A DNA stretch of 64,000 nt, from NCBI GenBank assembly GCA_031364845.1, contig JANLWX010000028.1, positions 5,346 to 69,345 on the forward strand. Direction: 5' to 3'. A program made the translations under genes and the position numbers. The notes under the pieces are model-generated. The model saw only the letters and a program-made list of their open reading frames with translations, was not told the origin of the DNA and searched no databases. Each line of letters starts with the position of its first letter. The first letter of the stretch is position 1. Shown piece after piece: positions 1,996 through 53,276 of this stretch. The stretch comes from Candidatus Eiseniibacteriota bacterium. Its GTDB lineage: Bacteria > Eisenbacteria > RBG-16-71-46.

Positions 1996-2072
1996 TCGAG
2001 TCGCGGCGGTGCGGGCCCGTGGGGTCCGCACCCGCCGCATCGACACATCCCACCAAGACCCATACGAGCGCG

Positions 2073-4808: not shown

Positions 4809-4810
4809 CG

Positions 4811-9129: not shown

Positions 9130-9204
9130 AATGATCTCATCGCGCTTCGCTTACCGGCCGGACGGCCGGGAGACCGCCGGGGCCACATCACTGAAGAGGC
9201 ACCT

Positions 9205-10788: not shown

Positions 10789-10841
10789 TGTCCGCGGGCC
10801 GCGGCGCGCGAGAACGTTCGAAGAGAGGACAAGGCCGACGC

Positions 10842-13800
10842 ATGCCAAAGATCGAGGCGGCGACCACGCTGCCTCGCGAGGACAACACGACCTCGCGGGG
10901 CAGTCTCGTCGTTTCGCCCGGTGCGATCCTCTCCAACGGGCGGCTCTCGGTTGCGATCACCGGACGCGGCACCGGTTTCACTTCTCACGGCGGGTCCCTG
11001 CTCACGCGCTGGGCCGGCGATCCGGTCGAGGACCGCGACGGCAGCTTCGTCTATCTGCGTGACCTCGACTCGCGTGAGGTGTGGACTGCGGGTACCGAGC
11101 CGCTAGCCGGTGTTCCCGACGCCTACGAATCCACGTGGCGCCCCGGCGTGTTCACGATCGAGCGGCGCGACCACGGCATCGAGACGAAGCTCGAAGTCGC
11201 CGTGATGCCGGACGCCGATGCCGAGGTGCGGCGCGTCACGTTGCGCAATCGCTCGCGTCGCGCGCGGCGCATCGAGATCACGAGCTTCGCGCCGGTCGTG
11301 ATTCACGACGCCGCGGCTGACGCCTCGCATCCGGCGTTCTCACGGTTGTTCGTCCAGACCGAATTCGACTCCTCAACGCGCGCGCTGGTCGTGTCCCGGC
11401 GGCCGCGGCATCCGGACGAGCAGCATCCGTGGCTGGTACACGTGATGACCGGCGCGGGCCGGCTCGAGCACGAAACCGACCGCGACCGCTTCATCGGCCG
11501 CGGCGGCACCACGGCAGCACCGCGCGCGCTTTCGTCGCGCGGGCGGCTTTCGGGAACCACCGGCAACGTGCTCGACCCGATCGTGAGCCTGCGGCGGGTC
11601 GTGAAGCTCGAGCCCGGCGGGATCGCGCACGTGTTCTTTGGGCTGGGTGCGGCGTTCGATCGCGAAGCCGCGCTGGAACTGGCGCGCGTGGTGCAGCGCG
11701 ACGCGGATGCGGCGTTCGACCTCGCGGAGCACGCGGAGGTTGCCCGGCTGGCACTCGCGGGCGTGACGCCCGCACTCGAAGAACGCCGGCAGGCGCTCGC
11801 GGTCGCGACGTTGTACGGGCGGTTCGTGGAATCCGTTGCCGGTAGGGTGGCGGCGGGCACGAAGCCCGTGTCCATCACCGATCAACTCCATGCGGCCGGG
11901 ACCGCGACCCCGTCGCCGAGCGTGAATCGCGTCCGCATCGCCGCGCACGCCACCGCGCACCACAACGGCGTCGCGCGGCTCCCCGCGCAGCGCTCCTCAC
12001 GCGCGACCTCGCGGCGGCGCACCGCGACGCCCGAGCCGCTCCAGTTCTGGAACGGCTACGGCGGGTTTTCGGCCGAAGGCACCGAGTATGTCATCCGACT
12101 CGCCCACCATAAGGAGCTTGGTCTCTCGCTGCCGCCGGCACCGTGGGTCAACGTGCTCGCGAACGAGAGCTTCGGTGCGCTCGTGAGCGAGACCGGCGCG
12201 GGATGCACGTGGAGCCGCAACAGCCGGGAGCATCGCCTGACGACGTGGTCCAACGACCCGCTGCTCGATCCGCACGGCGAGGCGCTCTACCTGCGCGACG
12301 AAGCGAGCGGCGAGTCGTGGTCGCCGCTGCCCGGTCCGCGACCCGCGGCCGCCGATTACGAAATGCGCCACGGTTTCGGCGTGAGCCGCTGCACCCATTC
12401 GAGCCACGGGCTCGAACAGGTGACCGAGATCTTCGTGCCTGCGCGCGAGCCGGTGAAGATCGTGCGCCTGCGGATCACGAATGCATCGGCGGCCCCGAGG
12501 CGCCTCGCGGTGTTCTCGTATCAACGGCTGGTGCTGGGATCGGACACCCGCGATCACGCGCGCACGGTGGAAGTCGAGCAGGACCGTGACTCAGGAATTC
12601 TGCTCGCGCGCAATCCCGCGTCGGGACCCTACGCCGGGGGCATCGCGTTCTCCACGGTCGTCGCATCCGGCGGCGTTTCTGCTTCGCACGTCACGCGCAA
12701 TCGCGAGGCGTTCCTCGGAGTGAACGGCAATCCGTCCGACCCCAGAGCGCTCCACGGTGGCACGCTTCGCGATGTTCCGGCCGGCGGCGATCCGTGTTTC
12801 GCGCGGCAGATCGTGATCGAGATCGCGCCGTCGGCGGTGTTCGAATGCGCGTTCCTGCTCGGCGAGACGATGGATCTGTCGAGCGTGCGCGAACTCGTCG
12901 AGCGCCTGGGCACCGGGGGTGCGATCGAAGCCGCGCTGCTCGCAACCCGCGAAGTGTGGGCCGAGCGCGTCTCGGCGGTCGCGATCCGCACGCCGCGCCC
13001 GGCGATCGATCTGATGGTGAACGGCTGGCTCGCCTACCAGACGCTCGCGTGCCGGCTGTGGGGGCGCACCGCGTTCTACCAGTCGGGCGGAGCGCTCGGG
13101 TTCCGCGACCAGCTCCAGGACGCGGCGTCGCTGCTCATGTGGTCGCCCGGTATTTTGCGCGAGCAGATCCTGACGCACGCCAGCCACCAGTTCGTGGAAG
13201 GCGACGTGCTCCACTGGTGGCACCCGCCCGATGCGCGCGGGATTCGCACGCGCTTCGCCGACGATTTGCTGTGGCTGCCGTGGCTCACCGCCGGATATGT
13301 CACGGCCACCGGCGATGCGGCGGTATTGGACGAGCAGACGCGCTATGTCACTGCCCGCGCACTCGAGGACGGCGAGGACGAAGCATTTCTCGTCCCCGAG
13401 GATTCCGGTGAGAGCGGTGATGTCTACGAGCACTGCTGCCGGGCGATCGACCGATCGCTCGCGACCGGTATCCACGGCCTGCCGCTGTTCGGCACCGGTG
13501 ACTGGAACGACGGCATGAATCGCGTGGGCCGCGAAGGCCGCGGCGAAAGCGTGTGGATGGGCTTCTTCCTCTACACCGTGCTTGGCGAGTTCCTCGCGCT
13601 GTGCGAACGGCGCGCCGACCGCGCGCGGATCGAGCGCTATGTCGCGCATCGTGAACATCTGAAGACCGCGCTCAACGATGCCGGATGGGACGGCGGCTGG
13701 TACCGGCGCGGCTACTACGACGACGGCACCGCGCTCGGCACGAAGGACGGCGACGAGTGCCGCATCGACGCGCTGGCTCAGGCGTGGGCGGTGTTGTCGG

Positions 13801-14483
13801 GCGCGGCACCGAAGGCGCGCGCCCGGCGCGCGATCGACGCGGTGGAGCAACGCCTCGTGAGCGAGCGCCAGCAGTTGATCAAGCTGCTCGATCCGCCGTT
13901 CGAGCACACGCCGCACGATCCCGGCTACATCAAGGGTTACGTGCCCGGCGTGCGCGAGAACGGCGGGCAGTACACGCATGCCGCGCTGTGGGTGGTGCGG
14001 GCGGTCGCCGAACTCGGACGTAACGATCGCGCGGCAGCCCTGCTCGAGATGCTGAGTCCGGTCCGTCACACGCGCACGCGCGCGCAGGCGGATCAGTATC
14101 GTGTGGAGCCGTACGTGATCGCCGCCGACGTGTACGGCGCGGCACCTCACGTCGGACGGGGAGGCTGGACGTGGTACACGGGATCGGCGGGATGGATGCT
14201 GCGGGTCACGCTGGAGTCGGTGCTCGGCGTGAGGCTCGAACAGGGAAGGACGCTCACGATCGCGCCGTGCGTTCCCGATCAGTGGCCGGGCTTCGACGTG
14301 CGCTGGACGGTGCCGGGCGAGTCGACGGTCTACGAGATCGTGGTGCGGAATCCGAAGCGCCGCGCGCGGCGGGTGGTGACGGCCAAGGTGGACGGACAGC
14401 GCGCGGCAGTCGTCCGCGGCGTGGCACGGATTGCGATCGAACACGATCAACGCGCCCATCGCATCGACGTGGTGCTGGGTTGA
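10842..14483 (+). CDS. GH94 glycoside phosphorylase (1,2-beta-oligoglucan phosphorylase / cellobiose-phosphorylase superfamily)
   Basis: ORF 10788-14483, ATG at 10842 (MPKIEAATT). Catalytic-domain motifs 'GWLAYQTLACRLWGRTAFYQSGGALGFRDQLQDAASL', 'GDVLHWWHPPDARGIRTRFADDLLWLPW' and 'GTGDWNDGMNRVGREGRGESVWMGFF' are GH94-like. Confidence 0.8.
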   Translation: MPKIEAATTLPREDNTTSRGSLVVSPGAILSNGRLSVAITGRGTGFTSHGGSLLTRWAGDPVEDRDGSFVYLRDLDSREVWTAGTEPLAGVPDAYESTWRPGVFTIERRDHGIETKLEVAVMPDADAEVRRVTLRNRSRRARRIEITSFAPVVIHDAAADASHPAFSRLFVQTEFDSSTRALVVSRRPRHPDEQHPWLVHVMTGAGRLEHETDRDRFIGRGGTTAAPRALSSRGRLSGTTGNVLDPIVSLRRVVKLEPGGIAHVFFGLGAAFDREAALELARVVQRDADAAFDLAEHAEVARLALAGVTPALEERRQALAVATLYGRFVESVAGRVAAGTKPVSITDQLHAAGTATPSPSVNRVRIAAHATAHHNGVARLPAQRSSRATSRRRTATPEPLQFWNGYGGFSAEGTEYVIRLAHHKELGLSLPPAPWVNVLANESFGALVSETGAGCTWSRNSREHRLTTWSNDPLLDPHGEALYLRDEASGESWSPLPGPRPAAADYEMRHGFGVSRCTHSSHGLEQVTEIFVPAREPVKIVRLRITNASAAPRRLAVFSYQRLVLGSDTRDHARTVEVEQDRDSGILLARNPASGPYAGGIAFSTVVASGGVSASHVTRNREAFLGVNGNPSDPRALHGGTLRDVPAGGDPCFARQIVIEIAPSAVFECAFLLGETMDLSSVRELVERLGTGGAIEAALLATREVWAERVSAVAIRTPRPAIDLMVNGWLAYQTLACRLWGRTAFYQSGGALGFRDQLQDAASLLMWSPGILREQILTHASHQFVEGDVLHWWHPPDARGIRTRFADDLLWLPWLTAGYVTATGDAAVLDEQTRYVTARALEDGEDEAFLVPEDSGESGDVYEHCCRAIDRSLATGIHGLPLFGTGDWNDGMNRVGREGRGESVWMGFFLYTVLGEFLALCERRADRARIERYVAHREHLKTALNDAGWDGGWYRRGYYDDGTALGTKDGDECRIDALAQAWAVLSGAAPKARARRAIDAVEQRLVSERQQLIKLLDPPFEHTPHDPGYIKGYVPGVRENGGQYTHAALWVVRAVAELGRNDRAAALLEMLSPVRHTRTRAQADQYRVEPYVIAADVYGAAPHVGRGGWTWYTGSAGWMLRVTLESVLGVRLEQGRTLTIAPCVPDQWPGFDVRWTVPGESTVYEIVVRNPKRRARRVVTAKVDGQRAAVVRGVARIAIEHDQRAHRIDVVLG

Positions 14484-15934
14484 GATCGATCGTCACGCGG
14501 CCGGCGTGGGTACTGCTCGCGCTGTTCGCGATCGCGACGGCGTCGTGCTCGTCGACCGCAACGCGAGCCGTCGCAACCGCGACCGCACCGCGCCACTCGG
14601 CGCGCGAAACCGCGTTCCTCGACACGCTCGAACACCGCACGTTCCGGTTCTTCTGGGAGCAGAGCGACTCGGTGACCGGCATGGCGCCCGATCGCTGGCC
14701 GACGCGCTCGTTCGTGAGCGTGGGTGCGGTCGGCTTCGCGCTCACCGCGTACCCGATCGGTGCCGAGCGCGGCTGGGTGCCGCGTGCGGCGGCGGTCGAA
14801 CGCACGGCGCGCACGTTGCGCTGGTTCTGGGCCGCGCGCCAGGACACCGCCGCCCAGGGTGCGACCGGCTATCGCGGGTTCTACTACCACTTCCTGCACC
14901 CGACCACCGGCACACGCTTCGAGACGGTCGAACTGTCGACCATGGACACGGCACTGCTGCTCGCGGGGGCGCTGTTCTGCCAGTCGTATTTCGATCGCCC
15001 CGGGCCCGCCGAAGCCGAAGTGCGCGCGCTCGCCGATTCGATCTACCGCCGCGTCGACTGGCGCTGGGCGCAGGTGCGTCCGCCCACGATCGCGCTCGGA
15101 TGGAATCCCGAAGGCGGACACCTGCCGTACGACTGGCGCGGCTACAACGAGACGATGCTGCTGCACATCCTCGCACTCGGATCGCCGACGCACCCGGTCG
15201 GGCCCGACACGTGGCGCTCATACACCAGCGCCTATCGTTTCGGCACCTACCAGGGACAGGAGCATCTCGGTTTCGCGCCGCTGTTCGGACATCAGTACTC
15301 GCACGTGTGGATCGACTTCCGCGGCATCCGCGACAGCGTGATGCGGGCGCACGATCTCGACTACTTCGAGAACTCGCGGCGCGCCACACTCGCGCAGCGC
15401 GCGTACGCGATCGAAAATCCTTCGGGCTGGGCCGGTTATGGCGCGAATCTGTGGGGGCTCACCGCGTGCGATGGTCCGGTCGAGAAGGCGATGACGATCG
15501 ACGGGCGCGCGCGGCAGTTCCACACCTACTGGGCGCGCGGCGCGTCGTTCACCGAGGTGAACGACGACGGAACGCTGTCGCCGACCGCGGCGGGCGGATC
15601 GATTCCGTTCGCGCCCGAGATCGCGATCCCCGCGCTGATGACGATGCGCGAGCGCTTCGGCGCCCACGTGTTCGGCGAGTACGGATTCGTCGACGCGTTC
15701 AACCCCACGCTGCGCGAGGCGATCCCCGTGCAGCACGGCCGCGTCGTGCCGGATGTGGGCTGGTTCGACACCGATTACCTCGGCATCGATCAGGGACCGA
15801 TCCTCGCGATGGCCGAGAATCATCGCACGCAGCTGGTGTGGCGCACACTGCGGAAGAATCCGCACATCGTGCGCGGCCTGCGCGCGGCGGGCTTCACCGG
15901 CGGCTGGCTCGACGGAGCGCCGGTCGCGCGATGA
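14480..15934 (+). CDS. GH144-like (DUF3131) lipoprotein, second paralog
   Basis: Frame of ORF 14171-15934. The only sensible start is TTG 14480 (overlaps the GH94 stop as TTGA), giving MRSIVTRPAWVLLALFAIATASC (lipobox TASC). Shares the 'FGHQYSHVWIDFRGIRD', 'FENSRRATLAQRAYAI' and 'YLGIDQGPILAMAENHR' blocks with 9205-10788. Confidence 0.75.
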   Translation: MRSIVTRPAWVLLALFAIATASCSSTATRAVATATAPRHSARETAFLDTLEHRTFRFFWEQSDSVTGMAPDRWPTRSFVSVGAVGFALTAYPIGAERGWVPRAAAVERTARTLRWFWAARQDTAAQGATGYRGFYYHFLHPTTGTRFETVELSTMDTALLLAGALFCQSYFDRPGPAEAEVRALADSIYRRVDWRWAQVRPPTIALGWNPEGGHLPYDWRGYNETMLLHILALGSPTHPVGPDTWRSYTSAYRFGTYQGQEHLGFAPLFGHQYSHVWIDFRGIRDSVMRAHDLDYFENSRRATLAQRAYAIENPSGWAGYGANLWGLTACDGPVEKAMTIDGRARQFHTYWARGASFTEVNDDGTLSPTAAGGSIPFAPEIAIPALMTMRERFGAHVFGEYGFVDAFNPTLREAIPVQHGRVVPDVGWFDTDYLGIDQGPILAMAENHRTQLVWRTLRKNPHIVRGLRAAGFTGGWLDGAPVAR

Positions 15935-42752: not shown

Positions 42753-44732
42753 GTGGCCACCGAGATCGTTACGCCCCCCGAGTTGAAGCAAACCCCCGAA
42801 GAGATCGAGCGTCACTGGTTCGAGAACGTCTACGCCGGTGACCGCATGCCGCAGCTCACCCCGCGCGCCCTGATCATGGGGATGATGCTGGGTGCCGTGA
42901 TGTCGCTGTCGAACGTGTACGTCGGTCTCAAGGCGGGATGGGGGCTCGGGGTGGCGATCACCTCCAGCATCCTCGCGTTCGCGGCGTTCTCGACCATGCA
43001 CAAGCTGTTTCCCAAGCAATTTCCCGAGTTCAGCATCCTCGAGAACAACGCGATGGCGTCGTGCGCTTCGGCTGCCGGTTACATGACCGGTGCCGGGCTC
43101 GTGAACGCGATCCCCGCGCTGATGATGCTGCAGCCCGACGCGGTTCCCAGCATGTGGGTGCTGATGGTGTGGATCGGCGTGATCTCGTGGCTCGGGGTGT
43201 TCCTCGCGGTGCCCGCCAAGCGCCAGATGATCAACATCGAGCAGCTCAAGTTCCCCTCGGGGATCGCCGCAGCGACCACGCTGCGCACACTTCACAATGA
43301 AGGCGGGGGAGCGGCGGCCCGCCAGGCTCGCTCGCTCGGGTTCTCGGTCTTGTTCGGCGCGATCATCACGTGGTGCCGCGACGCTGAGTTCTCATGGTTG
43401 AATATCGTGAGGTGGGGCGAGAGTGGTTTCGGGTTCACGAAATTCGCAGCCCCCGCAACCTGGCCGTCGTGGCTCACGGCGGTCGTGTCGTGGATCCGGT
43501 ATCCCCATGTTCCCGCGACGTGGCTTCCGGGAGATTGGCTTCCGGGATGGTGGCACATCGGCAAGTACCGCATGCGCCAGGATCTCACCCTCGCCTTCGA
43601 AGGCTCGCTGCTGTTCGTGGCCGCGGGTGCGATCATGGGAATGCGCCAAGCGTGGAGCCTGTTGCTCGGCACCGTGATCAACTTCGGCATTCTCGCCCCG
43701 ATGATGATGGACGCTGGAGTGATTCCTGATGCCGGCGGCAGCGCGCTGCGGCGCATCTCGAGCTGGAGCCTGTGGATCGGCGTTCCGATGATGGTGACCT
43801 CGGGCCTGCTGCTGTTCATCGTGCAGTGGAAGACCGTGGCGCGCGCGTTCAGCACCATCACGAAGATCTTCGTGAAGCGCCACCCCGCCGGGGCCGAAGA
43901 TCCAATGGACCGGATCGAAGTGCCGGGCTCGTGGTTCATCGGCGGTATGGTCGTGCTCGGAACGGCGACCGTGATTCTCGGGGAGCTGTTCTTCCACATC
44001 CACTGGTGGATGGGCATCATCGCGGTGCTGATGACGTTCCTGCTGGTGGTGGTCGCGGGGCGCGCGACCGGCGAGACCGACATCACGCCGACCGGTCCGC
44101 TCAGCAAGATCACGCAACTCACTTTCGGAGCACTCGCCCCCGGCAACATCACCACGAATCTCATGACCGCGAACATCACGGCCGGCGCGTGCAGCCACGC
44201 CGGCGATCTGTTGACCGATCTCAAGAGCGGCTATCTGCTCGGCGCCAAGCCGCGCCAGCAATTCGTCGCCCAGTTCTTCGGCGTGCTGATCGGCACGATT
44301 GTCGTGGTGCCCGTGTTCTTCGTCCTGATCCCGAACGCTTCGGTCCTCGGCACCGACCAGTGGCCCGCACCGGCCGCCCAGGTGTGGCGCGGAGTGGCCG
44401 AGTTGCTCGCGAAAGGCGTGGGGGCGCTCCATCCGACCGCGCGCGTCGGGCTTTTGATCGGCGCGCTCGCCGGCATCGTGCTCGCGCTGCTCGAGCTGCG
44501 ATTCCCGAAGCAGAAGAAGTGGATCCCGTCGCCGACCGGGCTCGGGCTCGCGTTCACGATCACCGCCTACTACTCGATCTCGATGTTCATCGGCGCGCTG
44601 CTCGCGGCGGCGATCATGCGGATGAACAAGAAGGCCGGCGAGGAGTACATCGTGCCGGTGGCTTCGGGGATCATTGCCGGCGAGAGCCTGATGGGTGTTG
44701 CGATCGCGCTGCTCTTCATCCTGGTGCCCTAA
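42753..44732 (+). CDS. OPT-family oligopeptide transporter
   Basis: GTG 42753 is the first start after an in-frame TAG; ATG 42846 is an alternative. About 16 TM segments; 'LTPRALIMGMMLGAVMSLSNVYVGLKAGWG' is an OPT signature. Confidence 0.85.
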   Translation: MATEIVTPPELKQTPEEIERHWFENVYAGDRMPQLTPRALIMGMMLGAVMSLSNVYVGLKAGWGLGVAITSSILAFAAFSTMHKLFPKQFPEFSILENNAMASCASAAGYMTGAGLVNAIPALMMLQPDAVPSMWVLMVWIGVISWLGVFLAVPAKRQMINIEQLKFPSGIAAATTLRTLHNEGGGAAARQARSLGFSVLFGAIITWCRDAEFSWLNIVRWGESGFGFTKFAAPATWPSWLTAVVSWIRYPHVPATWLPGDWLPGWWHIGKYRMRQDLTLAFEGSLLFVAAGAIMGMRQAWSLLLGTVINFGILAPMMMDAGVIPDAGGSALRRISSWSLWIGVPMMVTSGLLLFIVQWKTVARAFSTITKIFVKRHPAGAEDPMDRIEVPGSWFIGGMVVLGTATVILGELFFHIHWWMGIIAVLMTFLLVVVAGRATGETDITPTGPLSKITQLTFGALAPGNITTNLMTANITAGACSHAGDLLTDLKSGYLLGAKPRQQFVAQFFGVLIGTIVVVPVFFVLIPNASVLGTDQWPAPAAQVWRGVAELLAKGVGALHPTARVGLLIGALAGIVLALLELRFPKQKKWIPSPTGLGLAFTITAYYSISMFIGALLAAAIMRMNKKAGEEYIVPVASGIIAGESLMGVAIALLFILVP

Positions 44733-44813
44733 CCGCGGCGCCCGCGAAGCGGGCGTCGCAGGCCTTCCTGCGATCATGGCGAAGGCGTTTCCCTCCAACT
44801 CCGACCCCCCAAC

Positions 44814-44849
44814 GCAACGCGCCGGGCGAAAATCCGCCCGGCGCGTTGC
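44814..44849 (+). terminator. Perfect 15-bp GC-rich hairpin ~80 nt downstream of the OPT transporter stop (U-tract-less terminator or REP-like element)
   Basis: 'gcaacgcgccgggcg aaaatc cgcccggcgcgttgc': the arms are exact reverse complements. Confidence 0.35.
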
Positions 44850-44944
44850 ATGTCAACTCCATGCCCGAACGGGCCGATGACTCCGGATATCCCCCATAGG
44901 CGGGGATACCGAGTTTCGAGCCCGTTTTCGCATGGAGGTGTCGG

Positions 44945-46246
44945 TTGAGAACGCACGCCCAGCCCCCCGTTGTTCGCCCGTCACGCTCCGCCATGGTCGC
45001 GCTGTGCGTGCTCGCGTGCATCACGGCGGCGGTGCCCGCGTTCGCGGCGAAGAAGAAGAGCGCCGCGGCTGATCCGACGCCCGGGAACATCTCCATGGCC
45101 TCGGTGCCGTCGCGCGGTGACGACGGGGCGCTCCCCGATCTCGATCCCGCGGAGCAGGCGCTATGGCAGCGGCTGTGTTTCCGCGTCGAGGACGCCTTCG
45201 ACAGCACCCGCGGCGGATTCGTGAGCAAGAACGGCATCCTCGACGAGAGCGCAATCGACGTCGCGTTCCTGCTCGGACCGCGCGATCGCCAGGATCGCTG
45301 GAACGGCTACGGCGTGTACACGACCCAGTGGATGCTCGGCCTCGAAGACAGCATCGGCGGCGGGTTCTTCATGCGCCATGAAGTCGTCGCGGGCGGCGGG
45401 CAGTTCGAGCGGCCGACGCTGATCAACGCGCGGCGTCTCGAGAACCTGATCGATGCGTGGGAGCGCACCAACGACACGCGCTACTGGGTGTCGGCGGTGC
45501 GGCTGCTCGAATTCGCCGAGCGCAACGTCGTCGATGGGCGCGGTGGATTCACCTCCGATCCGGTCGGGGACCAGGATCTGGTGCCGCAGGTGAACGGTGT
45601 CGCGATCCGCGCGTGGCTCAAGTGGTGGGCCGCCGGGCGCGATCCCAAGCGCCGCGACTTCGCGCTGCGCAGCATCGACCGCTTGTGGCAGAGCGCGTGG
45701 AGCGACAGCGCCGGATTTCTGCGCGCGAATTCGTTCGGCGAGCCGATCGCATGGCCGCAGCTGAGCGATCAGACCGAGATGGGCCGCGCGCTGGTCATGA
45801 GCGCACAGCTCGCCGGACGCCGTGGCGATCTCGAGCGCGCGAAGAAGGTCGCCGACCTGATGCTCGCGAACTTCGCCGACGATCGCGGCACGTTCCGCTC
45901 GGAAGCCATGGGCCGCCCGGGCAGGCTGCGGCGCGCTCCGGGCCGCGTGCCGCGCGAGAACGCGCGCGCGGCCCTGTTCCTGTGCGAGTTGGCGCACGTC
46001 GCGCGCGCTCCGAAATACTTCGAAGCCGCGCGGTGCGTGTGGCGCGCCTATGCCAAGGATCTCGAGAAGACCAAGCTCGAAGCCGCCGACTGGGTGCTCG
46101 CGATGGACGCGGCGATCTCGCCCGTGTTCCCCAGGCGCCCCTCCGAGACCGCGAAGCCCGCGGACAAGGCCAAGTCGCCGCGCACCAACGGCAAGACGCG
46201 CATGCGTTCTCCGGAGACGAAGATCGGAGCGAGCGGGCAGCGCTGA
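44945..46246 (+). CDS. Hypothetical secreted protein ((alpha/alpha)6 / N-acylglucosamine-epimerase-like). Its 3' end lies inside the left direct repeat of the downstream island
   Basis: TTG 44945 with GGAGG 6 nt upstream; signal '..MVALCVLACITAAVPAFA'. 433 aa, no family assigned. Confidence 0.6.
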   Translation: MRTHAQPPVVRPSRSAMVALCVLACITAAVPAFAAKKKSAAADPTPGNISMASVPSRGDDGALPDLDPAEQALWQRLCFRVEDAFDSTRGGFVSKNGILDESAIDVAFLLGPRDRQDRWNGYGVYTTQWMLGLEDSIGGGFFMRHEVVAGGGQFERPTLINARRLENLIDAWERTNDTRYWVSAVRLLEFAERNVVDGRGGFTSDPVGDQDLVPQVNGVAIRAWLKWWAAGRDPKRRDFALRSIDRLWQSAWSDSAGFLRANSFGEPIAWPQLSDQTEMGRALVMSAQLAGRRGDLERAKKVADLMLANFADDRGTFRSEAMGRPGRLRRAPGRVPRENARAALFLCELAHVARAPKYFEAARCVWRAYAKDLEKTKLEAADWVLAMDAAISPVFPRRPSETAKPADKAKSPRTNGKTRMRSPETKIGASGQR

Positions 46247-46283
46247 ACTTCGCGCCATCGGCGCGAACTCTTGTGCGATCGAA
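46193..46283. repeat. Left copy of a ~90-bp imperfect direct repeat (3' end of gene 44945-46246 plus ~35 bp downstream)
   Basis: 'aagacgcgcatgcgttctccggagacgaagatcggagcgagcgggcagcgctgaacttcgcgccatcggcgcgaactcttgtgcgatcg' is ~80% identical to 51102-51192, including a 30-bp core 'cagcgctgaacttc[g/t]cgccatcggcgcgaa'. Confidence 0.65.
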
Positions 46284-46465
46284 GACCCGAGGGAGCGCGG
46301 ATATTTGATCAGTCCGCGCTCCGAGGTGTCCCTGACTGCGAGCCCGGGCTCTATATGTGCTCAGCCGCCAACATGCCTTCAATGGCTCCCACCTCCGCAA
46401 CACCATGCTCCCACCGAAGTGAAGATAGAACTTCACGCCCCTCGTGTTTTCTGATTGCAAATAAA

Positions 46466-46477
46466 GGGGGGGGGGGG
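46466..46477. repeat. Homopolymeric G12 tract (candidate slipped-strand phase-variation site)
   Basis: 'ataaaGGGGGGGGGGGGcgtaacg', ~50 bp upstream of GTG 46529 at the 5' edge of the island gene array. Confidence 0.85.
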
Positions 46478-46528
46478 CGTAACGTGGTGCGCGGCTAGTG
46501 TGAAACACACACTGCCCTACCATCTGGT

Positions 46529-46843
46529 TTGGTGGAGGAGCCCTCCGTGGAACGCGAGGTCGCAACGTCCAGCGAGCACAGACACGTCACGTTCTCATTG
46601 GAATCAGCGCTCGAAGCTGCCCAGCCGGGTGCTACCATCGACATCCCTGCGGGCGAGTACTACGCGAAACCTGGCGGGTGGCTCATTACGAAGAGCATCA
46701 CGCTCCTCGGGCAGGCGACAGCGGGCGGCGCACTTGGAGTGACGGTTCTAACTAAAGGCGCGCCTGCGTTTGTGATCGCCCCGGGAACTACTGACGTGAT
46801 CGTCATGAGCGTCTCATTTGCGGACTGCTCGCCGCCGGCCTGA
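46529..46843 (+). pseudogene. Right-handed beta-helix (pectate-lyase-fold) N-terminal fragment, 104 codons; likely a gene remnant or small domain protein
   Basis: 'ALEAAQPGATIDIPAGEYYAKPGGWLITKSITLLGQ' carries the same 'PG.TI.IP.G.Y....L.I.....I.G' module found twice in 47878-50439, but the ORF stops after 104 aa. Confidence 0.3.
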
Positions 46844-46936
46844 GCTGCTTCTACCTGCGATCGCATCAAGGCAGTGGGCGCCGGTCGCGTGTTCTATGAC
46901 TTGCAATCAAATCGATCCATCCAAGCGAGGTGCATC

Positions 46937-47839
46937 ATGCTCCGCACGCTTCTTTCGAGTCTCGTTCTGTATGCCACTCTGGTCGGAGCCCCCGCGTCGG
47001 CGCTTACGATCAACGTCGACGGCCTCGGTCCCGAAGGCGGCTATGGTGCGGCGCGCCGCGTGCCCCAGACATGCAACACTTCGGCGGGCAACAACCCCTC
47101 AGGTGGCGACAACCGTCACGCGATGGGGTCCGAGCTGAACGTCAGCGCTGCGGCCATCCTCAACGCGACGGTGTATGCGATGTATACGGGAAACCTCCAG
47201 AGCAACTTCACCAACCTCGAAGTATTCATCGACTGCATCGCCGGCGGCCAGAACACGTTGCGGGGCGACAACGCCATGGTTCCGCTCAATGGATTGAACC
47301 GCATGGCAGGTTTGACGTTCGATGCGGACTTTGAACCGGACTACTACATCACCATGAACTGCGGGGACTCGGCGGGAACTTACAGGTTCTCCGGACACTT
47401 CGTTACCCTGCCGACCTCAGGCGGAGGTGTCAGCACATACCTAGGGTCTACAGATGCAGCAATCACCGGGAGCGGTAATTCGCTCGGCATTCAGTTCGCG
47501 ATTCAGAATGGCAATGCTTCGGGCGTAGTTGCTGGATGCAGTCCGGCAGTCCTCTTGAACAATACTAGTCCGACTGGCGTCGAGATCGGCGTGCCACTTT
47601 CCGCAATCGGCAATCCCGGCGGATGCATCAAGGTGTGCGCGTTTATCAACCGACCCGCGCACGACTTCATCTTCAATCAGTTTATGGAGCCGCTTCCCGC
47701 GGGATCATGTGATCTCGGCGATCCCTCCACCGTATCCCTCGCGTCGATCGCGGGAGACCAGTTCTATGTGGCCTGCGAGGAACCGCCCACGCCCGCCGTG
47801 CGCGCCACTTGGGGCAAGGTAAAGGTGCTGTACAGGTAG
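46937..47839 (+). CDS. Hypothetical secreted protein (island cargo)
   Basis: Start MLRTLLSSLVLYATLVGAPASA (signal) with GAGG upstream. Gly/Asn/Ser-rich, several Cys, no family assigned. Lower GC. Confidence 0.6.
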   Translation: MLRTLLSSLVLYATLVGAPASALTINVDGLGPEGGYGAARRVPQTCNTSAGNNPSGGDNRHAMGSELNVSAAAILNATVYAMYTGNLQSNFTNLEVFIDCIAGGQNTLRGDNAMVPLNGLNRMAGLTFDADFEPDYYITMNCGDSAGTYRFSGHFVTLPTSGGGVSTYLGSTDAAITGSGNSLGIQFAIQNGNASGVVAGCSPAVLLNNTSPTGVEIGVPLSAIGNPGGCIKVCAFINRPAHDFIFNQFMEPLPAGSCDLGDPSTVSLASIAGDQFYVACEEPPTPAVRATWGKVKVLYR

Positions 47840-47877
47840 CCTCAGAGGTCAGGTCTTGTGGATCGAGGGGGATTTTC

Positions 47878-50439
47878 ATGGCCGTGAATCTGACGTGGAA
47901 GGATGTCTCGCAGTCGCCGTACAGCGGCTCGATCGAGAAGGCGATCAATGGCCAGGCGAGTCCATTCATCGCCCCCGTGCAGCCTGGTGACACGATCTAT
48001 GTCCCCGGCGGGAACTACAACATCGCGAACCCACTGCTCATCAACCAACCCAACGTCAGGATTGTTGGCGATGGCATGGACAAGACCAACATCATTTGCC
48101 CGTCCGGGTCATCGATTGCGGTATTCGATGTCACGGAGTCGTTCGCGACCCTTGAGGGATTCACGATCACGCAGGCCGATGCCGTCACCTCGGGGACCGG
48201 GGTGGGTGTGAGGATCGGTTCCAGCGCCACGTACATCCAGCAGACTACCCTCAGGCACATCAAGATCAAGTTCATGCCAAGCTACGCGCTATTCATTCCT
48301 GGCGGGTCCGAAGGGTTCTCGAACCAGCCCGTGAATGAGACCGTGATCGAGAACGCCATCTTGCACAACTCCCAGTCGGACGCCATCGTGTTCATCGGAA
48401 AAGGCAGTACGCTCGCCAATTTCAGAAACTGCAACATCAGCGCATACCACGTTCCCGGGGTATTGGCGGTCCAGATCATGAATGCGTCGCACATCACTTT
48501 CGATTCGTGTGAGGGCAATCCGGCGCCTGACAAGTATTGGCTGGACTTTGAGGTAGATCCGAACGACGCCGCCCCCACATCTGGCGGAGAGGCGCTTTCC
48601 ATCATTAACTGCGACTTGGAAGTTAATCGTGAAGAACCCGGAGCTGTGCGGCATTCCAGCTATTTCATTCACGCGAAGCGCGTGTCACATGTCTTGATTC
48701 AGAGCACGCTACTGTATTGGGCGCAGAAGGGTGTCTGGCTGGAAGAATGTAACAACGCCATTGTCCAGGCCAATGTGTTCATCGACATACGCGCGAATGG
48801 TAATACGGGCGCAAATCCTGCGGCATCGTCCTTGACGCTCACAGCATGCAAGGACACAGCGATCATCGGTTCGTGTTGGCAGAACACGGACTATAACACT
48901 GACTGGATTCCGGATGGCACGGTCACGGGCGAGAGACTCCCGTTGCCTTTCGAAGAGCTGAGCGGCACGACGGGGACGACGGTTTTGGAGCAGGGTGTCG
49001 CGCTACTCCCGACCTATGGTGCCGTGGCGTCCAGTTTGCCCAACAACGTAAAGACGGGGCTGCTGCACCCTGGCATGCTGGCTTACGATCTTAAGCGTCG
49101 CCTGCAATCGTGGGACGGCGCGAAGTGGGTGAGGGCGGTCACGGGCTACGAGCTCTTCATCGCGACCGACTACGCGGACATCCAGCTCGCCGTCGATGCG
49201 GCCAGCGCCGCGGCTACGGGCGGGGTTGTCTATGTCCCGGGGGCGACTTACAACGAGTCCTCGACGCCGAAGTACAGCGGCAATCTGATCGTGAACGCAC
49301 CGGGCAAGACGATTCGAATCATCGGCGACGGAGCGGGGAGCACAATTCTGCAGGCACCGTCGACAGGCCCCAACAACGACAAACCGATGCTGAGTCTTCG
49401 GTCCGATGACATCGCGATTGAAGGCATGACGTTCGATGGCTTCAATCAGGTCAGCACCGCCGCGGGCATCGTCATCGGTAACGCAGGTCAGGCAGTGTTC
49501 CGTCCACGTATGACCGACGTGACCGTAAGGAACAGTGCGGGATGGTCGATCTATGCACTCGGTTCGGAGGCCGCGGCGAGCTCCCACTACGGCCTGTTCG
49601 AACGCGTGCGCTGCACGGGCAATCGGAGCGCTGCCACCGGAGGCGTGTGGCTGGCGGTCGGGTGCTCGACCCACGTGTTCCGGGACTGCGTCGTGGAACA
49701 GTTCAAGGGCTACGGGGTGTTCATGGACCAAGTTGACGGTGCCGCACTGCTCGAGTGCCGGATCTTCGATGCCAGCGATGACACGCAGCCCTACTTGGGA
49801 CTGAACAACTCCCTGAACATCATCGTCACCGCGCTCAAGTGCCGAAACCAGGCACCTCCGACGCAAACGCAGAATGAGCGCTTCATCAAACTCACCGGCG
49901 AGAATCGCAGCATCAGCATCATTGCGCCGAAGCTCTATCGGGACCAGACCTCGAACCCGAACGGAAGCGATGTCAATAGCGGTGGGGGGATCGCTCGCTC
50001 CGTCATGATCCTGAGTCCTGAGATGAGGGTGCAAGGAGCCGCGACGGGAACAGACCACATCAAGATCGGGAGTTCATCGGAGTGCTTCATCATCGGCGGC
50101 GTGGTCTCGGCCTCCGGGGCCGCTACCCCATTTCCGGTCATGGAGATCGAGAGCCCGGCATCCCGCTTTGCGGTCGCGGGTCGGGCAACGATCGACTTCG
50201 GCAATGGGGCGCAGTCGGCGACCGTGAGCGTGTCCGATCTCCGCGTTGCCACGAACTCTCGAATCATGGCCGCGATGGCCTATGCCCCAACGCTGAATCG
50301 CGACCTGGACGAATTGGAGATGGACCACTTTGAAGTGCACGCGGGCAATGTCACCAACGGCGTGGGATTTGAGATCGTGGCCGACTGTCTGACAGGCTAT
50401 GGGCACGGCACTTACTTCGTCGATTACATCAGGAGCTGA
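47878..50439 (+). CDS. Tandem right-handed beta-helix protein (pectin-lyase-fold / tailspike- or polysaccharide-depolymerase-like), 853 aa, no signal peptide
   Basis: GAGGGGG then ATG 47878. Two paralogous halves: 'IAPVQPGDTIYVPGGNYNIANPLLINQPNVRIVGDGMDKTNIICPSGSS' and 'AAATGGVVYVPGATYNESSTPKYSGNLIVNAPGKTIRIIGDGAGSTILQAPS'. Repeated 'N..I..N.F.D' turns. Confidence 0.7.
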   Translation: MAVNLTWKDVSQSPYSGSIEKAINGQASPFIAPVQPGDTIYVPGGNYNIANPLLINQPNVRIVGDGMDKTNIICPSGSSIAVFDVTESFATLEGFTITQADAVTSGTGVGVRIGSSATYIQQTTLRHIKIKFMPSYALFIPGGSEGFSNQPVNETVIENAILHNSQSDAIVFIGKGSTLANFRNCNISAYHVPGVLAVQIMNASHITFDSCEGNPAPDKYWLDFEVDPNDAAPTSGGEALSIINCDLEVNREEPGAVRHSSYFIHAKRVSHVLIQSTLLYWAQKGVWLEECNNAIVQANVFIDIRANGNTGANPAASSLTLTACKDTAIIGSCWQNTDYNTDWIPDGTVTGERLPLPFEELSGTTGTTVLEQGVALLPTYGAVASSLPNNVKTGLLHPGMLAYDLKRRLQSWDGAKWVRAVTGYELFIATDYADIQLAVDAASAAATGGVVYVPGATYNESSTPKYSGNLIVNAPGKTIRIIGDGAGSTILQAPSTGPNNDKPMLSLRSDDIAIEGMTFDGFNQVSTAAGIVIGNAGQAVFRPRMTDVTVRNSAGWSIYALGSEAAASSHYGLFERVRCTGNRSAATGGVWLAVGCSTHVFRDCVVEQFKGYGVFMDQVDGAALLECRIFDASDDTQPYLGLNNSLNIIVTALKCRNQAPPTQTQNERFIKLTGENRSISIIAPKLYRDQTSNPNGSDVNSGGGIARSVMILSPEMRVQGAATGTDHIKIGSSSECFIIGGVVSASGAATPFPVMEIESPASRFAVAGRATIDFGNGAQSATVSVSDLRVATNSRIMAAMAYAPTLNRDLDELEMDHFEVHAGNVTNGVGFEIVADCLTGYGHGTYFVDYIRS

Positions 50440-50440
50440 C

Positions 50441-51070
50441 ATGGCGATCATCAAGTCCGGAGCGACTACCGACCAACTCACGGTTGACCCTACCAGCAAG
50501 GCGGCCCGCGTCACGCTGTATGACCCAGCGGGACGGTCACTGGCGGCGGAATCCAAGGCAACCTACTTCGCCGCCGGCACGTTCACGCCGCCGGCGACCC
50601 CTACGGATATGGTGACGATCTTCGGTAGCGCAACGCGGACGGTGCGTGTTGTGGCGTTCATCATCACCACCACGAACACCGCAGCCGGATCTCAACAGTT
50701 TTCATTAATCAAGCGCACGACTGCGAATTCTGGCGGCACGCTTGTCGCGGCGACTGCCGTGACCGCGGATGTTGCCGATAGCGCTGCGACAGCCACCGTG
50801 GGTCACTACACTGCCAACCCCTCCGGGCTGGGCGCTGCGGCTGGAACCATCAATATCAGGCGCGCCGCCTCGCCTGCAGCGGTGCCGGCGAGTTTCGCGG
50901 GCGTCGTGCGGGATGCGGGTGTGGACATGCTTGACGTTGGAGCCAATACGTCGCTCAACAAGATCGCAGTGTTGAACGGCACGGGACAGGGATTGTGCCT
51001 CAACTTCGGAGGCGCGGCATTAGTTGCAGGGCAGACGCATGCGTACCAAGTCGTTTGGACTGAGGAATAG
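50441..51070 (+). CDS. Hypothetical protein (Ala/Thr-rich), coupled to the beta-helix gene
   Basis: AGGAG 5 nt upstream of ATG 50441, 2 nt after the upstream stop. 210 aa, no family assigned. Confidence 0.5.
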   Translation: MAIIKSGATTDQLTVDPTSKAARVTLYDPAGRSLAAESKATYFAAGTFTPPATPTDMVTIFGSATRTVRVVAFIITTTNTAAGSQQFSLIKRTTANSGGTLVAATAVTADVADSAATATVGHYTANPSGLGAAAGTINIRRAASPAAVPASFAGVVRDAGVDMLDVGANTSLNKIAVLNGTGQGLCLNFGGAALVAGQTHAYQVVWTEE

Positions 51071-51101
51071 AGCAGACGATTGCTTGTCCGGACCAAAACA
51101 C

Positions 51102-51192
51102 AAGGCGCGCATGAGCGCCCCGGAGACGAGATCGGAGCCAGAGGCCAGCGCTGAACTTCTCGCCATCGGCGCGAAGCGGTGTGCGACGCGCG
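51102..51192. repeat. Right copy of the ~90-bp direct repeat (degenerate duplicate of the gene 44945-46246 3' end)
   Basis: 'aaggcgcgcatgagcgccccggagacgagatcggagccagaggccagcgctgaacttctcgccatcggcgcgaagcggtgtgcgacgcg'. It would translate as ..SAPETRSEPEASAELLAIGAKR, against ..RSPETKIGASGQR* at the left copy. Confidence 0.65.
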
Positions 51193-51358
51193 AGCGCAGG
51201 GAAACGGCCACACGGACCCTCACCCTGCGCTCCTTGCATGCGGCGGACCGGCTATCGTCAACGACCCCGCGCCCGCCCCGCCCGTTGACCGCGCCCCGCC
51301 AAAACTCCTACCGTAGCGCTTCGTGTTCCACCCCACGCGTCCCTTCGAGGAATTCCCC

Positions 51359-52312
51359 ATGCGCCGAGTTCTCGTGACCGGAGTCACCGGTTTTGCCGGC
51401 AGCCATCTGGTCGATTACATGCTCACGCGCGGCGACTGCGAGATCTATGGGACGCAGCGGTGGCGCAGCCGCACGGAGAACATCGAACACGTGCGCGACA
51501 AGATCTCGCTGATCGAGTGCGACCTGCGCGATGCCTCGTCCACGCGCGACATGCTCGAAAAGGTGCGGCCGGATTTCATCTTTCACCTGGCGGCGCAGTC
51601 GTTCGTGCCGACGTCGTGGAATGCGCCGAGCGAATCGCTGACCACCAACGTGATCGGTCAGGTGAACATCTTCGAGGCGGTGCGCCGCATCGGCCTGCCG
51701 TGCCGCATCCAGCTTGCGTGCTCGAGCGAAGAATACGGGATGGTGTTTCCGGACGAGACGCCGATCAAGGAAACCAATCCCCTGCGGCCTTTGTCGCCGT
51801 ACGCGGTCAGCAAGGTCGCGCAGGACATGCTCGGCTACCAGTACTGGATGTCGTGGAAGCTCGACAGCGTGCGCACGCGCGGCTTCAATCATGAAGGCCC
51901 GCGGCGCGGGCCGGTGTTCGTGGCGTCGGACTTCGCGAAGCAGATCGCCGACATCGAGAAGGGCCTGCGCCCGCCGGTGGTCCACGTCGGCAATCTCGAT
52001 GCGCTGCGCGACTTCACCGATGTGCGTGACATGGTGCGCGGCTACTGGCTGGCGCTCGAGAAGTGCGAGCCGGGCGAGGTCTACAACATCTGCAGCGGCA
52101 AGGCGTGGAAGATCGGCGACATGCTCGAGCATTTGCTGGGGTTGTCGAAGGTGAAGATCGAAGTACGCCAGGATCCCGCGCGCCTGCGCCCGAGCGACGT
52201 GCCGATTCTGCTCGGCGACTACTCCAAGTTCGCGAAAGCGACGGGCTGGGCGCCGACGATTCCGTTCGAGCAGACGCTCGCCGACATGCTGGAGTACTGG
52301 CGGAATCGATAG
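51359..52312 (+). CDS. NAD-dependent epimerase/dehydratase, GDP-6-deoxy-D-mannose reductase (Rmd)-like
   Basis: 'VLVTGVTGFAGSHLVDYML', 'FHLAAQSFVPTSW', 'SSEEYG', 'SPYAVSKVA' (YxxxK). Confidence 0.8.
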   Translation: MRRVLVTGVTGFAGSHLVDYMLTRGDCEIYGTQRWRSRTENIEHVRDKISLIECDLRDASSTRDMLEKVRPDFIFHLAAQSFVPTSWNAPSESLTTNVIGQVNIFEAVRRIGLPCRIQLACSSEEYGMVFPDETPIKETNPLRPLSPYAVSKVAQDMLGYQYWMSWKLDSVRTRGFNHEGPRRGPVFVASDFAKQIADIEKGLRPPVVHVGNLDALRDFTDVRDMVRGYWLALEKCEPGEVYNICSGKAWKIGDMLEHLLGLSKVKIEVRQDPARLRPSDVPILLGDYSKFAKATGWAPTIPFEQTLADMLEYWRNR

Positions 52313-52313
52313 G

Positions 52314-53276
52314 ATGAGCATGTTCGAACTCCGGGGCGCCGCGGTCCTCGTCACCGGTGCCGGCGGCTTCGCCGGTCCTCATGCGGTGCGCGCGCTCGCC
52401 GAGCGTGGCGCGCGGATCTTCGGCACCGGCGGGCCCGAGCCGCGCGGGGTTTCGCTCGCGGGCTGGTTCGACTCCGATCTGCGCGATCCCGAAAGCCTGA
52501 TGACTGCGGTCGCCTCCGCGAAACCGGACGCTGTGCTGCATCTCGCCGGGCAGAGCAGTGCCGCGCGCTCGTTCGAACATCCGACCGAGACGTTTCACGT
52601 CAACGCACTCGGAAGCTGGTTTGTGCTCGAAGCGTTGCGCGTCCATGCGCCGCGCGCACGGGTACTGATGGTGACGAGCGGCGAGATCTACGGTCCGCAC
52701 GCCGAGGGCACGCGGATCGCCGAAGACGGCGCGGTCCGCCCGGTGAGTCCTTACGGATTGTCGAAGGCGGCTGCCGACGCGTTCGGAGCGATCGCGGCGG
52801 AGCGCGGGCAGGACGTCGTGCGCGCGCGATCGTTCGGTCACACAGGGCCAGGTCAGGAAGCGCGCTTCGTGATCCCCTCGATGGCGAGTCAGATCGCCGA
52901 GATCGAAACCGGATCACGCGCCCCGCGGCTTGCGGTCGGGAATCTCGAAGTCACGCGCGACATCTCGGACGTCCGCGACGTGGCGCGCGCGTACGTCGCG
53001 TTGATCGAGCGTGGGATCGCGGGGAAGGCCTACAATGTGTGCACGGGCGTCGGCGTGCGGCTGACCGACGTGGTGGCGCGGCTTGCGGCCCTCGCGCGGA
53101 TCCCGGTCATGGTCGAGGTCGATCCGGCGCGCCTGCGGCCCGCCGACGTGCCGTACCTGGTCGGCGACCCTTCGGCGATCGCCCTCGACACGGGGTGGGC
53201 CTGCGAAATCCCTCTCGAACAGACGCTCGCCGATGTGCTGGCGGAGTCGCGTTCGCGCGCGGCTCCCAGCGCCTGA
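52314..53276 (+). CDS. NAD-dependent epimerase/dehydratase (Rmd/GDP-4-keto-6-deoxyhexose reductase-like paralog)
   Basis: 'VLVTGAGGFAGPHAV', 'LHLAGQSSAARSF', 'SGEIYG', 'SPYGLSKAA'. Begins 2 nt after the upstream stop. Confidence 0.8.
   Translation: MSMFELRGAAVLVTGAGGFAGPHAVRALAERGARIFGTGGPEPRGVSLAGWFDSDLRDPESLMTAVASAKPDAVLHLAGQSSAARSFEHPTETFHVNALGSWFVLEALRVHAPRARVLMVTSGEIYGPHAEGTRIAEDGAVRPVSPYGLSKAAADAFGAIAAERGQDVVRARSFGHTGPGQEARFVIPSMASQIAEIETGSRAPRLAVGNLEVTRDISDVRDVARAYVALIERGIAGKAYNVCTGVGVRLTDVVARLAALARIPVMVEVDPARLRPADVPYLVGDPSAIALDTGWACEIPLEQTLADVLAESRSRAAPSA

Follow-up and report, generated by a model that had tools for sequence, protein, structure and literature searches.

A 4.9-kb island carrying a phage-derived gene pair at the 3' end of a conserved gene in a Candidatus Eiseniibacteriota bacterium

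We analyzed a stretch of 64,000 nucleotides (nt) from a Candidatus Eiseniibacteriota bacterium (GenBank assembly GCA_031364845.1, contig JANLWX010000028.1, positions 5,346 to 69,345 of the forward strand), referred to here as the window, and focused on a low-GC island of 4.9 kb that lies between a conserved gene and a polysaccharide cluster. An earlier reading of the letters of this DNA (the sequence-only reading) had proposed that direct repeats duplicating the 3' end of the upstream gene bound the island and that they mark its integration into the end of that gene. We found that the island is an insertion, that the corresponding site is empty in relatives, and that the two junctions are hybrids of native and foreign DNA. 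The features of the locus are listed below, with lengths of proteins and open reading frames (ORFs) in amino acids (aa). Related loci are denoted by numbers starting with L, the shared core of the repeat is denoted O, the native arms B and B', and the island-borne arms P and P'.

44945-46246, plus strand: target gene, conserved and with no assigned function; the insertion site comprises its 3' end with the stop codon and the hairpin
46187-46237, plus strand: B arm, the final ~17 codons of the target gene in their native form, with 47-48 of 51 nt identical to L006, L007, L010 and L030
46238-46267, plus strand: left core (O), CAGCGCTGAACTTCGCGCCATCGGCGCGAA, which includes the stop codon TGA (46244-46246) and the hairpin (46249-46267)
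46268-46450, plus strand: P' spacer, island-specific non-coding DNA from the core to the cassette promoter region, with no homolog in the fetched loci
46455-46485, plus strand: promoter-like element, TTGCAA - 19 nt with G12 (46466-46477) - TAACGT, as read from the sequence
46547-46843, plus strand: 98-aa ORF, cassette gene 1, resembling the start of a beta-helix protein, with weak NCBIfam matches
46937-47839, plus strand: gene for a 300-aa secreted protein of a bacterial family, 40 homologs
47878-50439, plus strand: gene for an 853-aa protein with two right-handed beta-helix domains and a C-terminal module (Pfam Beta_helix, Pect-lyase_RHGA_epim)
50441-51070, plus strand: last cassette gene, encoding a 209-aa jelly-roll protein of a phage-associated family, at least 448 homologs
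51093-51145, plus strand: P arm, a foreign, frameshifted copy of the last ~17 codons, matching the B arm in 39 of 51 columns and carrying a 1-nt deletion
51146-51175, plus strand: right core (O), with a single G-to-T change at 51160 relative to the left core that breaks the stem
51176-51282, plus strand: B', native intergenic DNA that lay directly 3' of the target-gene hairpin before the insertion, 85% identical to L010 over 68 nt
51285-52312, plus strand: right flank, outside the island, with a promoter-like TTGACC-18-TACCGT (51285-51314) and a gene of the rmd/GDP-mannose-4,6-dehydratase family (51359-52312)

The direct repeat pairs 46193-46283 with 51102-51192, and 74 of the 92 alignment columns match (80.4%) with one 1-nt gap. 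The similarity probably starts somewhat further left, at about 46181 and 51088. Within the repeat, a core of 30 nt (46238-46267 and 51146-51175) matches at 29 of 30 positions and reads CAGCGCTGAACTTC[G/T]CGCCATCGGCGCGAA. The core was found at only two places in the window when up to three mismatches were permitted, while none would be expected by chance (0 in 100 shuffles). The left copy consists of the last 18 codons of the target gene, its stop codon TGA at 46244-46246, and, right after the stop, a hairpin with a perfect 8-bp stem and a 3-nt loop in the minimum-free-energy fold. The right copy carries a 1-nt deletion, is non-coding and is unable to encode the target-gene peptide. All of this agrees with the sequence-only reading, which had described a repeat at about 80% identity with a near-perfect 30-bp core, a left copy covering the final 18 codons and stop, and a degenerate, non-coding right copy. 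That reading had also considered that the repeat might be a common intergenic repetitive extragenic palindromic (REP) element, which does not hold since there are two copies in the window and no extra copies in related loci. At the site, ARAGORN detected no tRNA or tmRNA gene and Rfam gave no match at gathering thresholds; a search of IMG/VR gave no exact match to the core.

The composition of the island differs from that of its surroundings. In 500-nt windows, the GC fraction falls from 0.68-0.71 to 0.54-0.62 across ~46250 to 50750, and the mean is 0.599 for the island versus 0.664 for the whole window. The GC fraction at third codon positions (GC3) is 0.70-0.76 in the island genes versus 0.82-0.88 in the flanking genes. 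The fall from about 70% that had been noted from the sequence is therefore real, but the 55-58% given for the island describes only the trough. An independent Logan assembly (L005) is 100% identical to the window over 44133-51613 and spans both junctions, which indicates that the arrangement is not an assembly accident.

We then compared the locus with contigs carrying orthologs of the target gene and with contigs of the members of its 90%-identity cluster. The sequence-only reading had suggested looking in relatives for an empty site, with the target gene abutting the rmd-like gene, and such sites exist. In four loci the ortholog is followed, after 37-175 nt, by a promoter-like TTGACC...TACCGT and the rmd-like gene, and a further locus (L010) is empty as well. 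The four loci are as follows.

L002: flanks 80-88% identical in nt to the window; intergenic distance ~155 nt
L003: intergenic distance ~110 nt
L006 (GCA_031388165.1): flanks ~88% identical in nt; 37 nt between the homology blocks
L030: gene 88% and rmd region 91.5% identical in nt; intergenic distance ~175 nt

When the window is aligned to L006, homology ends at 46256 and restarts at 51279, and the restart points for L006, L030, L002 and L003 all lie within 51276-51283. L010, with an ortholog at least 90% identical in aa, represents the unoccupied target of the window's own sub-lineage. Its gene end is intact (...IGASGQR* with TGA); next comes ACTTCGCGCCCATCGGCGCGAA, a version of the window's hairpin whose loop is longer by one C. 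After the hairpin, L010 continues with ...GCGAGCGCAGGGAAACGGC...CCCTGCGCTCCTTGC..., and in the window this sequence lies only to the right of the right copy, where 51176-51260 is 85% identical to the post-hairpin DNA of L010 over 68 nt. The island is lacking in all examined members of the cluster of 14 orthologs at 90% identity except the window itself.

The anatomy of the two junctions allows native and foreign DNA to be told apart. On the left, the B arm encodes ...GKTRMRSPETKIGASGQR as in the empty-site relatives (peptide RMRSPETKIGASGQR), and it is followed by the core and then by P', for which blastn gave no match in any fetched locus, including L027 and L028, where the cassette lies in a second context, and the empty sites. 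On the right, the P arm precedes the core and native B' follows it. When its frame is repaired, the P arm reads ..KARMSAPET(K)IGARGQR*, with SAP and ARG residues that are not in the resident gene, and its agreement with the sampled alleles is low throughout, at 30-40 of 50 nt. The SAP state is found in a sister subclade (P0007, P0010, P0012, P0013, P0015 and L030) and also in the more distant L002 and L003, and the ARG state is found in L002. The junctions, B-O-P' on the left and P-O-B' on the right, have the form that a Campbell-type single crossover leaves behind. The repeat is not equally conserved over its length, with 39 of 51 matches in the arm, 29 of 30 in the core and 16 of 33 to the right of the core. 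At the arm's rate, the probability of at most one mismatch in 30 is 0.003, and Fisher's test gave p = 0.025, so uniform decay of a once-identical duplication does not fit. We also considered the right copy as the displaced native gene end and dropped this, since closer relatives show the left copy to be the native allele. The proposal of integration into the 3' end of a gene, with duplicated left and right attachment sites (attL and attR), is thus borne out in its architecture and by the empty sites; the site-specific enzymology is the part that we infer.

The target gene encodes 433 aa if TTG at 44945 is the start, or 417 aa in the public gene call, which starts at 44993. Its product has no Pfam or NCBIfam match and has 14 orthologs in its 90%-identity cluster. 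A gene for an OPT transporter lies upstream, and this synteny is kept in L001-L004, L006-L010 and L030. The nearest named relative is a metagenome-assembled genome (MAG) labeled Candidatus Rokuibacteriota, in which the protein of this gene is 70% identical.

To characterize the cargo, we analyzed the four island ORFs of the public gene calls in L005 (98, 300, 853 and 209 aa), all of which are singletons at 90% identity among ~15 billion proteins. The gene content corresponds to that described in the sequence-only reading, except that what had been called a beta-helix fragment is a conserved ORF of 97-98 aa. This ORF matches NCBIfam beta_helix_1 / NosD at E 0.005-0.008, far under the cut-off, and is kept as a 97-aa ORF in L027, L028 and L029 at 74% aa identity. 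The 300-aa protein has 40 homologs, which are bacterial only and some of which are named PEP-CTERM sorting-domain proteins of Phycisphaerales; its copy in L027 is 82% identical in aa. No phage relatives were found for the 98-aa and 300-aa ORFs.

The last two genes have a different history, which the sequence-only reading had missed. By phmmer, the 853-aa protein separates into three modules, comprising a beta-helix at residues ~1-400, a second beta-helix at ~427-760, and a module of ~90 aa at ~760-853 (window 50160-50439). The ~90-aa module has no Pfam model and is always C-terminal, occurring in many proteins of 100-1077 aa. The family of the 209-aa protein, which likewise lacks a Pfam model, comprises at least 448 proteins, each ~209 aa long. 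Members were found in 12 viral contigs of IMG/VR, and phage contigs of ~38 kb encode them together with a VapE-like primase, a large terminase subunit (phrog_2) and an SU10-type portal. Where the ~90-aa C-terminal module occurs in phage contigs, it is always encoded by the gene immediately 5' of a 209-aa family member and follows a different N-terminal body. The last two cassette genes are therefore a phage-derived pair. The AlphaFold2 model of the 209-aa protein (58 homologs; predicted local distance difference test score, pLDDT, 84) is a jelly-roll beta-sandwich and matches uncharacterized tailed-phage proteins in BFVD (E 3e-13); matches to the PDB were generic jelly-roll folds and none was significant, and tblastn of the 209-aa protein against GenBank phages (INPHARED) gave no match. 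PHROGs, run on the island proteins and on the neighbors of the phage homologs, recognized the terminase alone. No further phage modules or pseudogenes for head, lysis or regulation were found in the island, which has the four ORFs only. An alternative ORF of 223 aa from the ATG at 50399, for which an exact-protein look-up gave no record, was set aside, as the public gene call begins at 50441. In its make-up, the pair looks like modular receptor-binding, tail-fiber or tailspike proteins.

Other members of the 209-aa family show additional arrangements. Two to three tandem paralogs of the gene are present in the viral contigs L011 (1041-2993), L013 (1313-3257) and L014 (8675-10627). In L022, only the N-terminal 32 residues are common with the family (75% identity). 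The family may thus combine a conserved N-terminal anchor with exchangeable bodies, as in receptor-binding proteins.

The cassette also occurs in a second chromosomal context. In L027 (1-3159), L028 (1-2816) and L029, genes for 97-aa, 296-aa and beta-helix proteins share 79-81% nt identity with window 46584-49200 and lie directly 3' of the stop codon of an MFS-type transporter gene. The sample that yielded L028 also yielded L025 (1-2290), in which the C-terminal half of the beta-helix gene and a gene for 210 aa are 85% identical to window 49077-51074. About 35 nt past the 210-aa gene, L025 has a convergent gene that ends ...LAVRVGF* and is outer-membrane-protein-like; this minus-strand fragment was considered as an integrase candidate and rejected on that basis. 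The unit common to both contexts is window ~46450-51092. No cassette ORF is disrupted in either context, and synonymous differences between the copies are numerous, with 72 synonymous versus 24 non-synonymous differing codons in the 209-aa gene. To judge from these intact frames and substitution patterns, the cargo is maintained rather than decaying. Of the two options offered by the sequence-only reading, a decayed element or one mobilized in trans, the former does not fit the cargo, as its four ORFs are intact in the second context.

The promoter-like element with the G12 tract lies ~60 nt upstream of the first cassette ORF. At the homologous spot in L027 (~432-462) and L028 (~158-188), two independent assemblies, the element reads TTGCAA - 19 nt with C14 - TAAACT. 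The flanks of the element are conserved and the base of the tract is switched from G to C between the contexts. A scan for consensus promoters, which covered spacers of 16-18 nt only, called none at the G12 element. Phase-variable promoters with a homopolymer in the spacer between the -35 and -10 elements are found at Bordetella fim and at Neisseria opc and porA. By its layout, the G12 element is a candidate slipped-strand phase-variable promoter of the cassette (for homopolymeric tracts and phase-variable promoters, see PMC1891110).

The island lies directly upstream of an exopolysaccharide cluster, as the sequence-only reading had stated. The rmd-like gene (Pfam GDP_Man_Dehyd, 2e-81) is the first gene of this cluster and is followed downstream by Poly_export, Wzz and Wzy_C. 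The promoter-like TTGACC-18-TACCGT is kept in L006, L030 and L003, although the surrounding intergenic DNA is unrelated. L006, L030 and L010 are all empty, yet their intergenic sequences are mutually unrelated. Other loci carry alternative genes at this position, including convergent genes for formyltransferase, polysaccharide deacetylase and rve-domain proteins in L007 (8961-9055), L008 (6887-7090) and L009 (2666-5735), and, in the more distant L001 (2858-4320) and L004 (11121-12956), a gene for a secreted purple-acid-phosphatase-like metallophosphoesterase with a FlgD_ig/T9SS-type (type IX secretion system) tail. Searches with blastn-short found no gene-end duplication in the other locus variants. 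A second copy of the gene end in L009 (the last 35 nt, after an N10 gap at 2622-2633) was rejected as a biological repeat, being most likely a scaffold join of two strain variants. We also compared window 51276-53257 with L030 2336-3132 and L006 11379-13370. Identity to L030 and L006 is ~88% in each case for the target gene, but for the rmd region of the window it is 91.5% to L030 and 81.9% to L006. Such a mosaic indicates recombination inside the polysaccharide cluster.

Taken together, it is very probable that the island is a horizontally acquired insert made by one crossover in the core. The segment 46268-51145 (4.9 kb) would then be an islet that entered by one reciprocal, Campbell-type crossover between the chromosome and a presumably circular DNA. 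The crossover would have fallen within a stretch of ~30 nt comprising the last two codons, the stop and the terminator-like hairpin of the 433-aa gene. The incoming DNA would have borne an attP-like P-O-P' arrangement with its own diverged last ~17 codons and the core, so that the host gene was left intact (attL = B-O-P') and a foreign pseudo-3'-end came to lie at the far side (attR = P-O-B'). The enzyme responsible was most likely site-specific and belonged to a temperate phage or an integrative element; this recombinase may since have been lost through internal deletion or may have been supplied in trans. What remains would be an islet resembling a cis-mobilizable element (CIME) or derived from a prophage, whose cargo is a presumably functional four-gene cassette. 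We favor a recombinase of this kind with modest confidence because the B-O-P'/P-O-B' layout preserves the host gene, the P arm is foreign and the cargo is of phage ancestry.

Several observations weigh against this interpretation. Pfam, NCBIfam and PHROGs revealed no recombinase, transposase or mobility domain in the four island proteins, and neither an excisionase nor an integrase was found in the scanned parts of the window, which accords, for those parts, with the statement of the sequence-only reading that the window has no integrase or mobility gene. The scan included 20 large ORFs outside 34-56 kb, which encode glycoside hydrolases, a TonB-dependent receptor, a protein kinase, pyrimidine-biosynthesis enzymes, Poly_export, Wzz and Wzy_C and have no integrase or transposase domain, the small ORFs there being left unscanned; the flanks within 34-56 kb are syntenic with L006, whose precomputed Pfam annotation shows no recombinase. 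Four plus-strand ORFs occupy nearly the whole island and leave ~260 nt free, so there is no space for a recombinase pseudogene. No intact P-O-P' element or relative with the same attachment (att) site was found, and no cognate integrative and conjugative element (ICE), integrative and mobilizable element (IME) or phage using this site was seen among 12 related loci. The examined stretches of phage contigs with homologs contain no integrase; in L016, a high-GC viral contig in which an integrase was looked for, only head genes were identified in the 20 kb examined. The 853-aa and 300-aa proteins have no close relative in IMG/VR. The inverted repeat of the core, with its 3-nt spacing, is terminator-like and unlike a typical tyrosine-recombinase core site. 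The copies in the second context have tight junctions without P', P arm or core, which means that the cassette does not need the att-like site in order to move or to be kept. Finally, the post-stop DNA is strain-variable among orthologs at least 90% identical in aa, and its alternative contents, at least three in number, come without repeats.

The variable contents and mosaic identity at the edge of the locus make host-mediated recombination a serious rival to an integrase. Under this alternative, the cassette would already have lain downstream of the ortholog in a related donor strain, and a crossover or illegitimate joining at the hypervariable edge of the polysaccharide locus would have brought it in with no dedicated integrase. 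The route could be a RecA-mediated single crossover of a circularized fragment in the 30-nt core, an identical block of ~30 nt being about the minimum length for RecA-dependent exchange. It could also be homology-facilitated illegitimate recombination, a process mentioned in the context of natural transformation (PMC6382021), with the right copy being a relic of the recipient's or donor's own gene end; this route requires two events, versus one for a crossover in the core. The strain-to-strain differences in post-stop DNA among relatives at least 90% identical in aa, the mosaic identity in the rmd region, the presence of the SAP state of the right copy in the sister subclade and the lack of a recombinase gene among the proteins scanned are all in keeping with host recombination. 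However, the other locus variants have no duplication of the gene end, and the P arm is unlike the sampled alleles (at most 40 of 50 nt) while the core and B' are of the resident type, which a relic from a single lineage would not explain. The post-stop core is also near-identical, as against 24% divergence in the adjoining coding arm, although variation at this locus is otherwise greatest in intergenic DNA. We regard host recombination without an integrase as possible but clearly the less likely account.

A gene-end duplication that arose long ago when the cassette was inserted, by any mechanism, and was followed by decay of the right copy appears improbable. The left copy would have tracked the population through recombination and selection, and relatives without the island would have lost it between the repeats, which is conceivable as direct repeats permit precise deletion. 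The SAP and ARG residues of the P arm do look ancestral, being common to L002, L003 and L030, and the right copy is frameshifted and carries a substitution that breaks the stem. Nevertheless, the mismatches are unevenly spread (P = 0.003), the island is lacking in the examined members of the 90% cluster and its proteins are singletons, none of which would be expected of an old insertion that had become widespread, and the GC3 of the island has not ameliorated toward that of the host. An artefact, either a chimera in the MAG assembly or a common REP-like repeat, is hardly credible. The assembly is of the metagenome type, and in L009 the assembly did create a second gene end next to an N gap, but the repeat here occurs just twice in 64 kb, without extra copies in 12 related loci, a Logan contig spans both junctions at 100%, and copies at 80% identity differ too much to confuse an assembler, so this explanation is effectively refuted. 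An insertion sequence or transposon does not describe the island either. No transposase was found and no terminal inverted repeats were reported, and the flanking repeat, at ~90 nt, 80% identical and internally structured, is unlike a short, identical target-site duplication.

The preferred reading, a recombinase-made insert that has kept its junctions, can be compared with known systems. CIMEs of the ICESt1/ICESt3 family are found at the 3' end of fda in Streptococcus thermophilus. CIMEs, which retain attL and attR and are without integration and transfer genes, form a recognized class (PMC5704250). Like them, the island has attL/attR-type repeats that include the 3' end of a gene, leaves the target intact and has no integration or transfer genes; both junctions are kept and no mobility gene was found. 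Unlike them, it has no known cognate ICE, IME or prophage, its cargo is phage-like and its host belongs to an uncultured high-GC soil lineage. It is not established as a CIME in the strict sense of an element derived from, and mobilized by, a known ICE or IME, and we use "CIME-like" as a label. Cryptic prophage remnants of the lambdoid and P22-like kind are similar in that phage-type genes lie proximal to attR and read toward it while the rest of the phage is gone. The island differs from them in having a bacterial-type secreted protein and no other phage gene, and its four intact ORFs, conserved in a context without att sites, have the look of a maintained operon and not of debris. Moreover, the 209-aa gene does not lie beside an att site or an integrase in the phage contigs that were examined.

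Genomic islands and prophages in the 3' ends of tRNA, tmRNA and protein genes share the B-O-P'/P-O-B' arrangement, the diverged replacement end and the empty sites, but they are defined by an integrase gene that is lacking here, and 4.9 kb is much below their typical size. Replacement of variable regions in O-antigen and capsule loci resembles the present case in its boundary between a conserved gene and polysaccharide genes, its strain-variable content, its lower GC and its mosaic identity. The end of the flanking gene is not normally duplicated in such replacements, whereas a structured direct repeat brackets the island. Integrative mobile elements exploiting Xer (IMEX), which use the host XerCD at dif (for example, the CTX phage), are integrated elements without a recombinase gene of their own. 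The target of the island, in contrast, is a gene end with a hairpin, and its core, with 8-bp arms and a 3-nt spacer, is by eye not dif-like. Overall, the island is a fairly ordinary, well-documented integrase-less genomic islet, of a kind that is already known.

Elsewhere in the window, two paralogous genes of the PF10091 "putative glucoamylase" family (9205-10788 and 14171-15934) share nt blocks that are 73-86% identical. The pair brackets a gene of the GH94 phosphorylase family (10788-14483), and a TonB-dependent receptor gene lies upstream (2019-4808). From its gene content, the region 2019-15934 looks like a beta-glucan utilization locus.

The island provides a clean natural case of integration into the 3' end of a protein gene in an uncultured high-GC soil lineage, where the sequence alone reveals the empty target, the two hybrid junctions and the polarity of the arms. 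A phage-type pair of beta-helix and jelly-roll genes persists as an intact, apparently selected cassette in two contexts, one of which is by a surface-polysaccharide locus. A further idea, which we put forward tentatively and consider unlikely, is that the cassette (4.6 kb, ~46450-51092) is a selected, domesticated phage receptor-binding or depolymerase module that is switched by its homopolymer promoter and relocates via the gene-end hairpin with a host enzyme or one supplied in trans. If the homopolymer promoter and an activity on polysaccharide were both real, the bacterium would be using phage receptor-binding hardware. Such a domesticated module could alter the polysaccharide on the bacterium's own surface, which might, for instance, help the cell evade phages that have this polysaccharide as their receptor.

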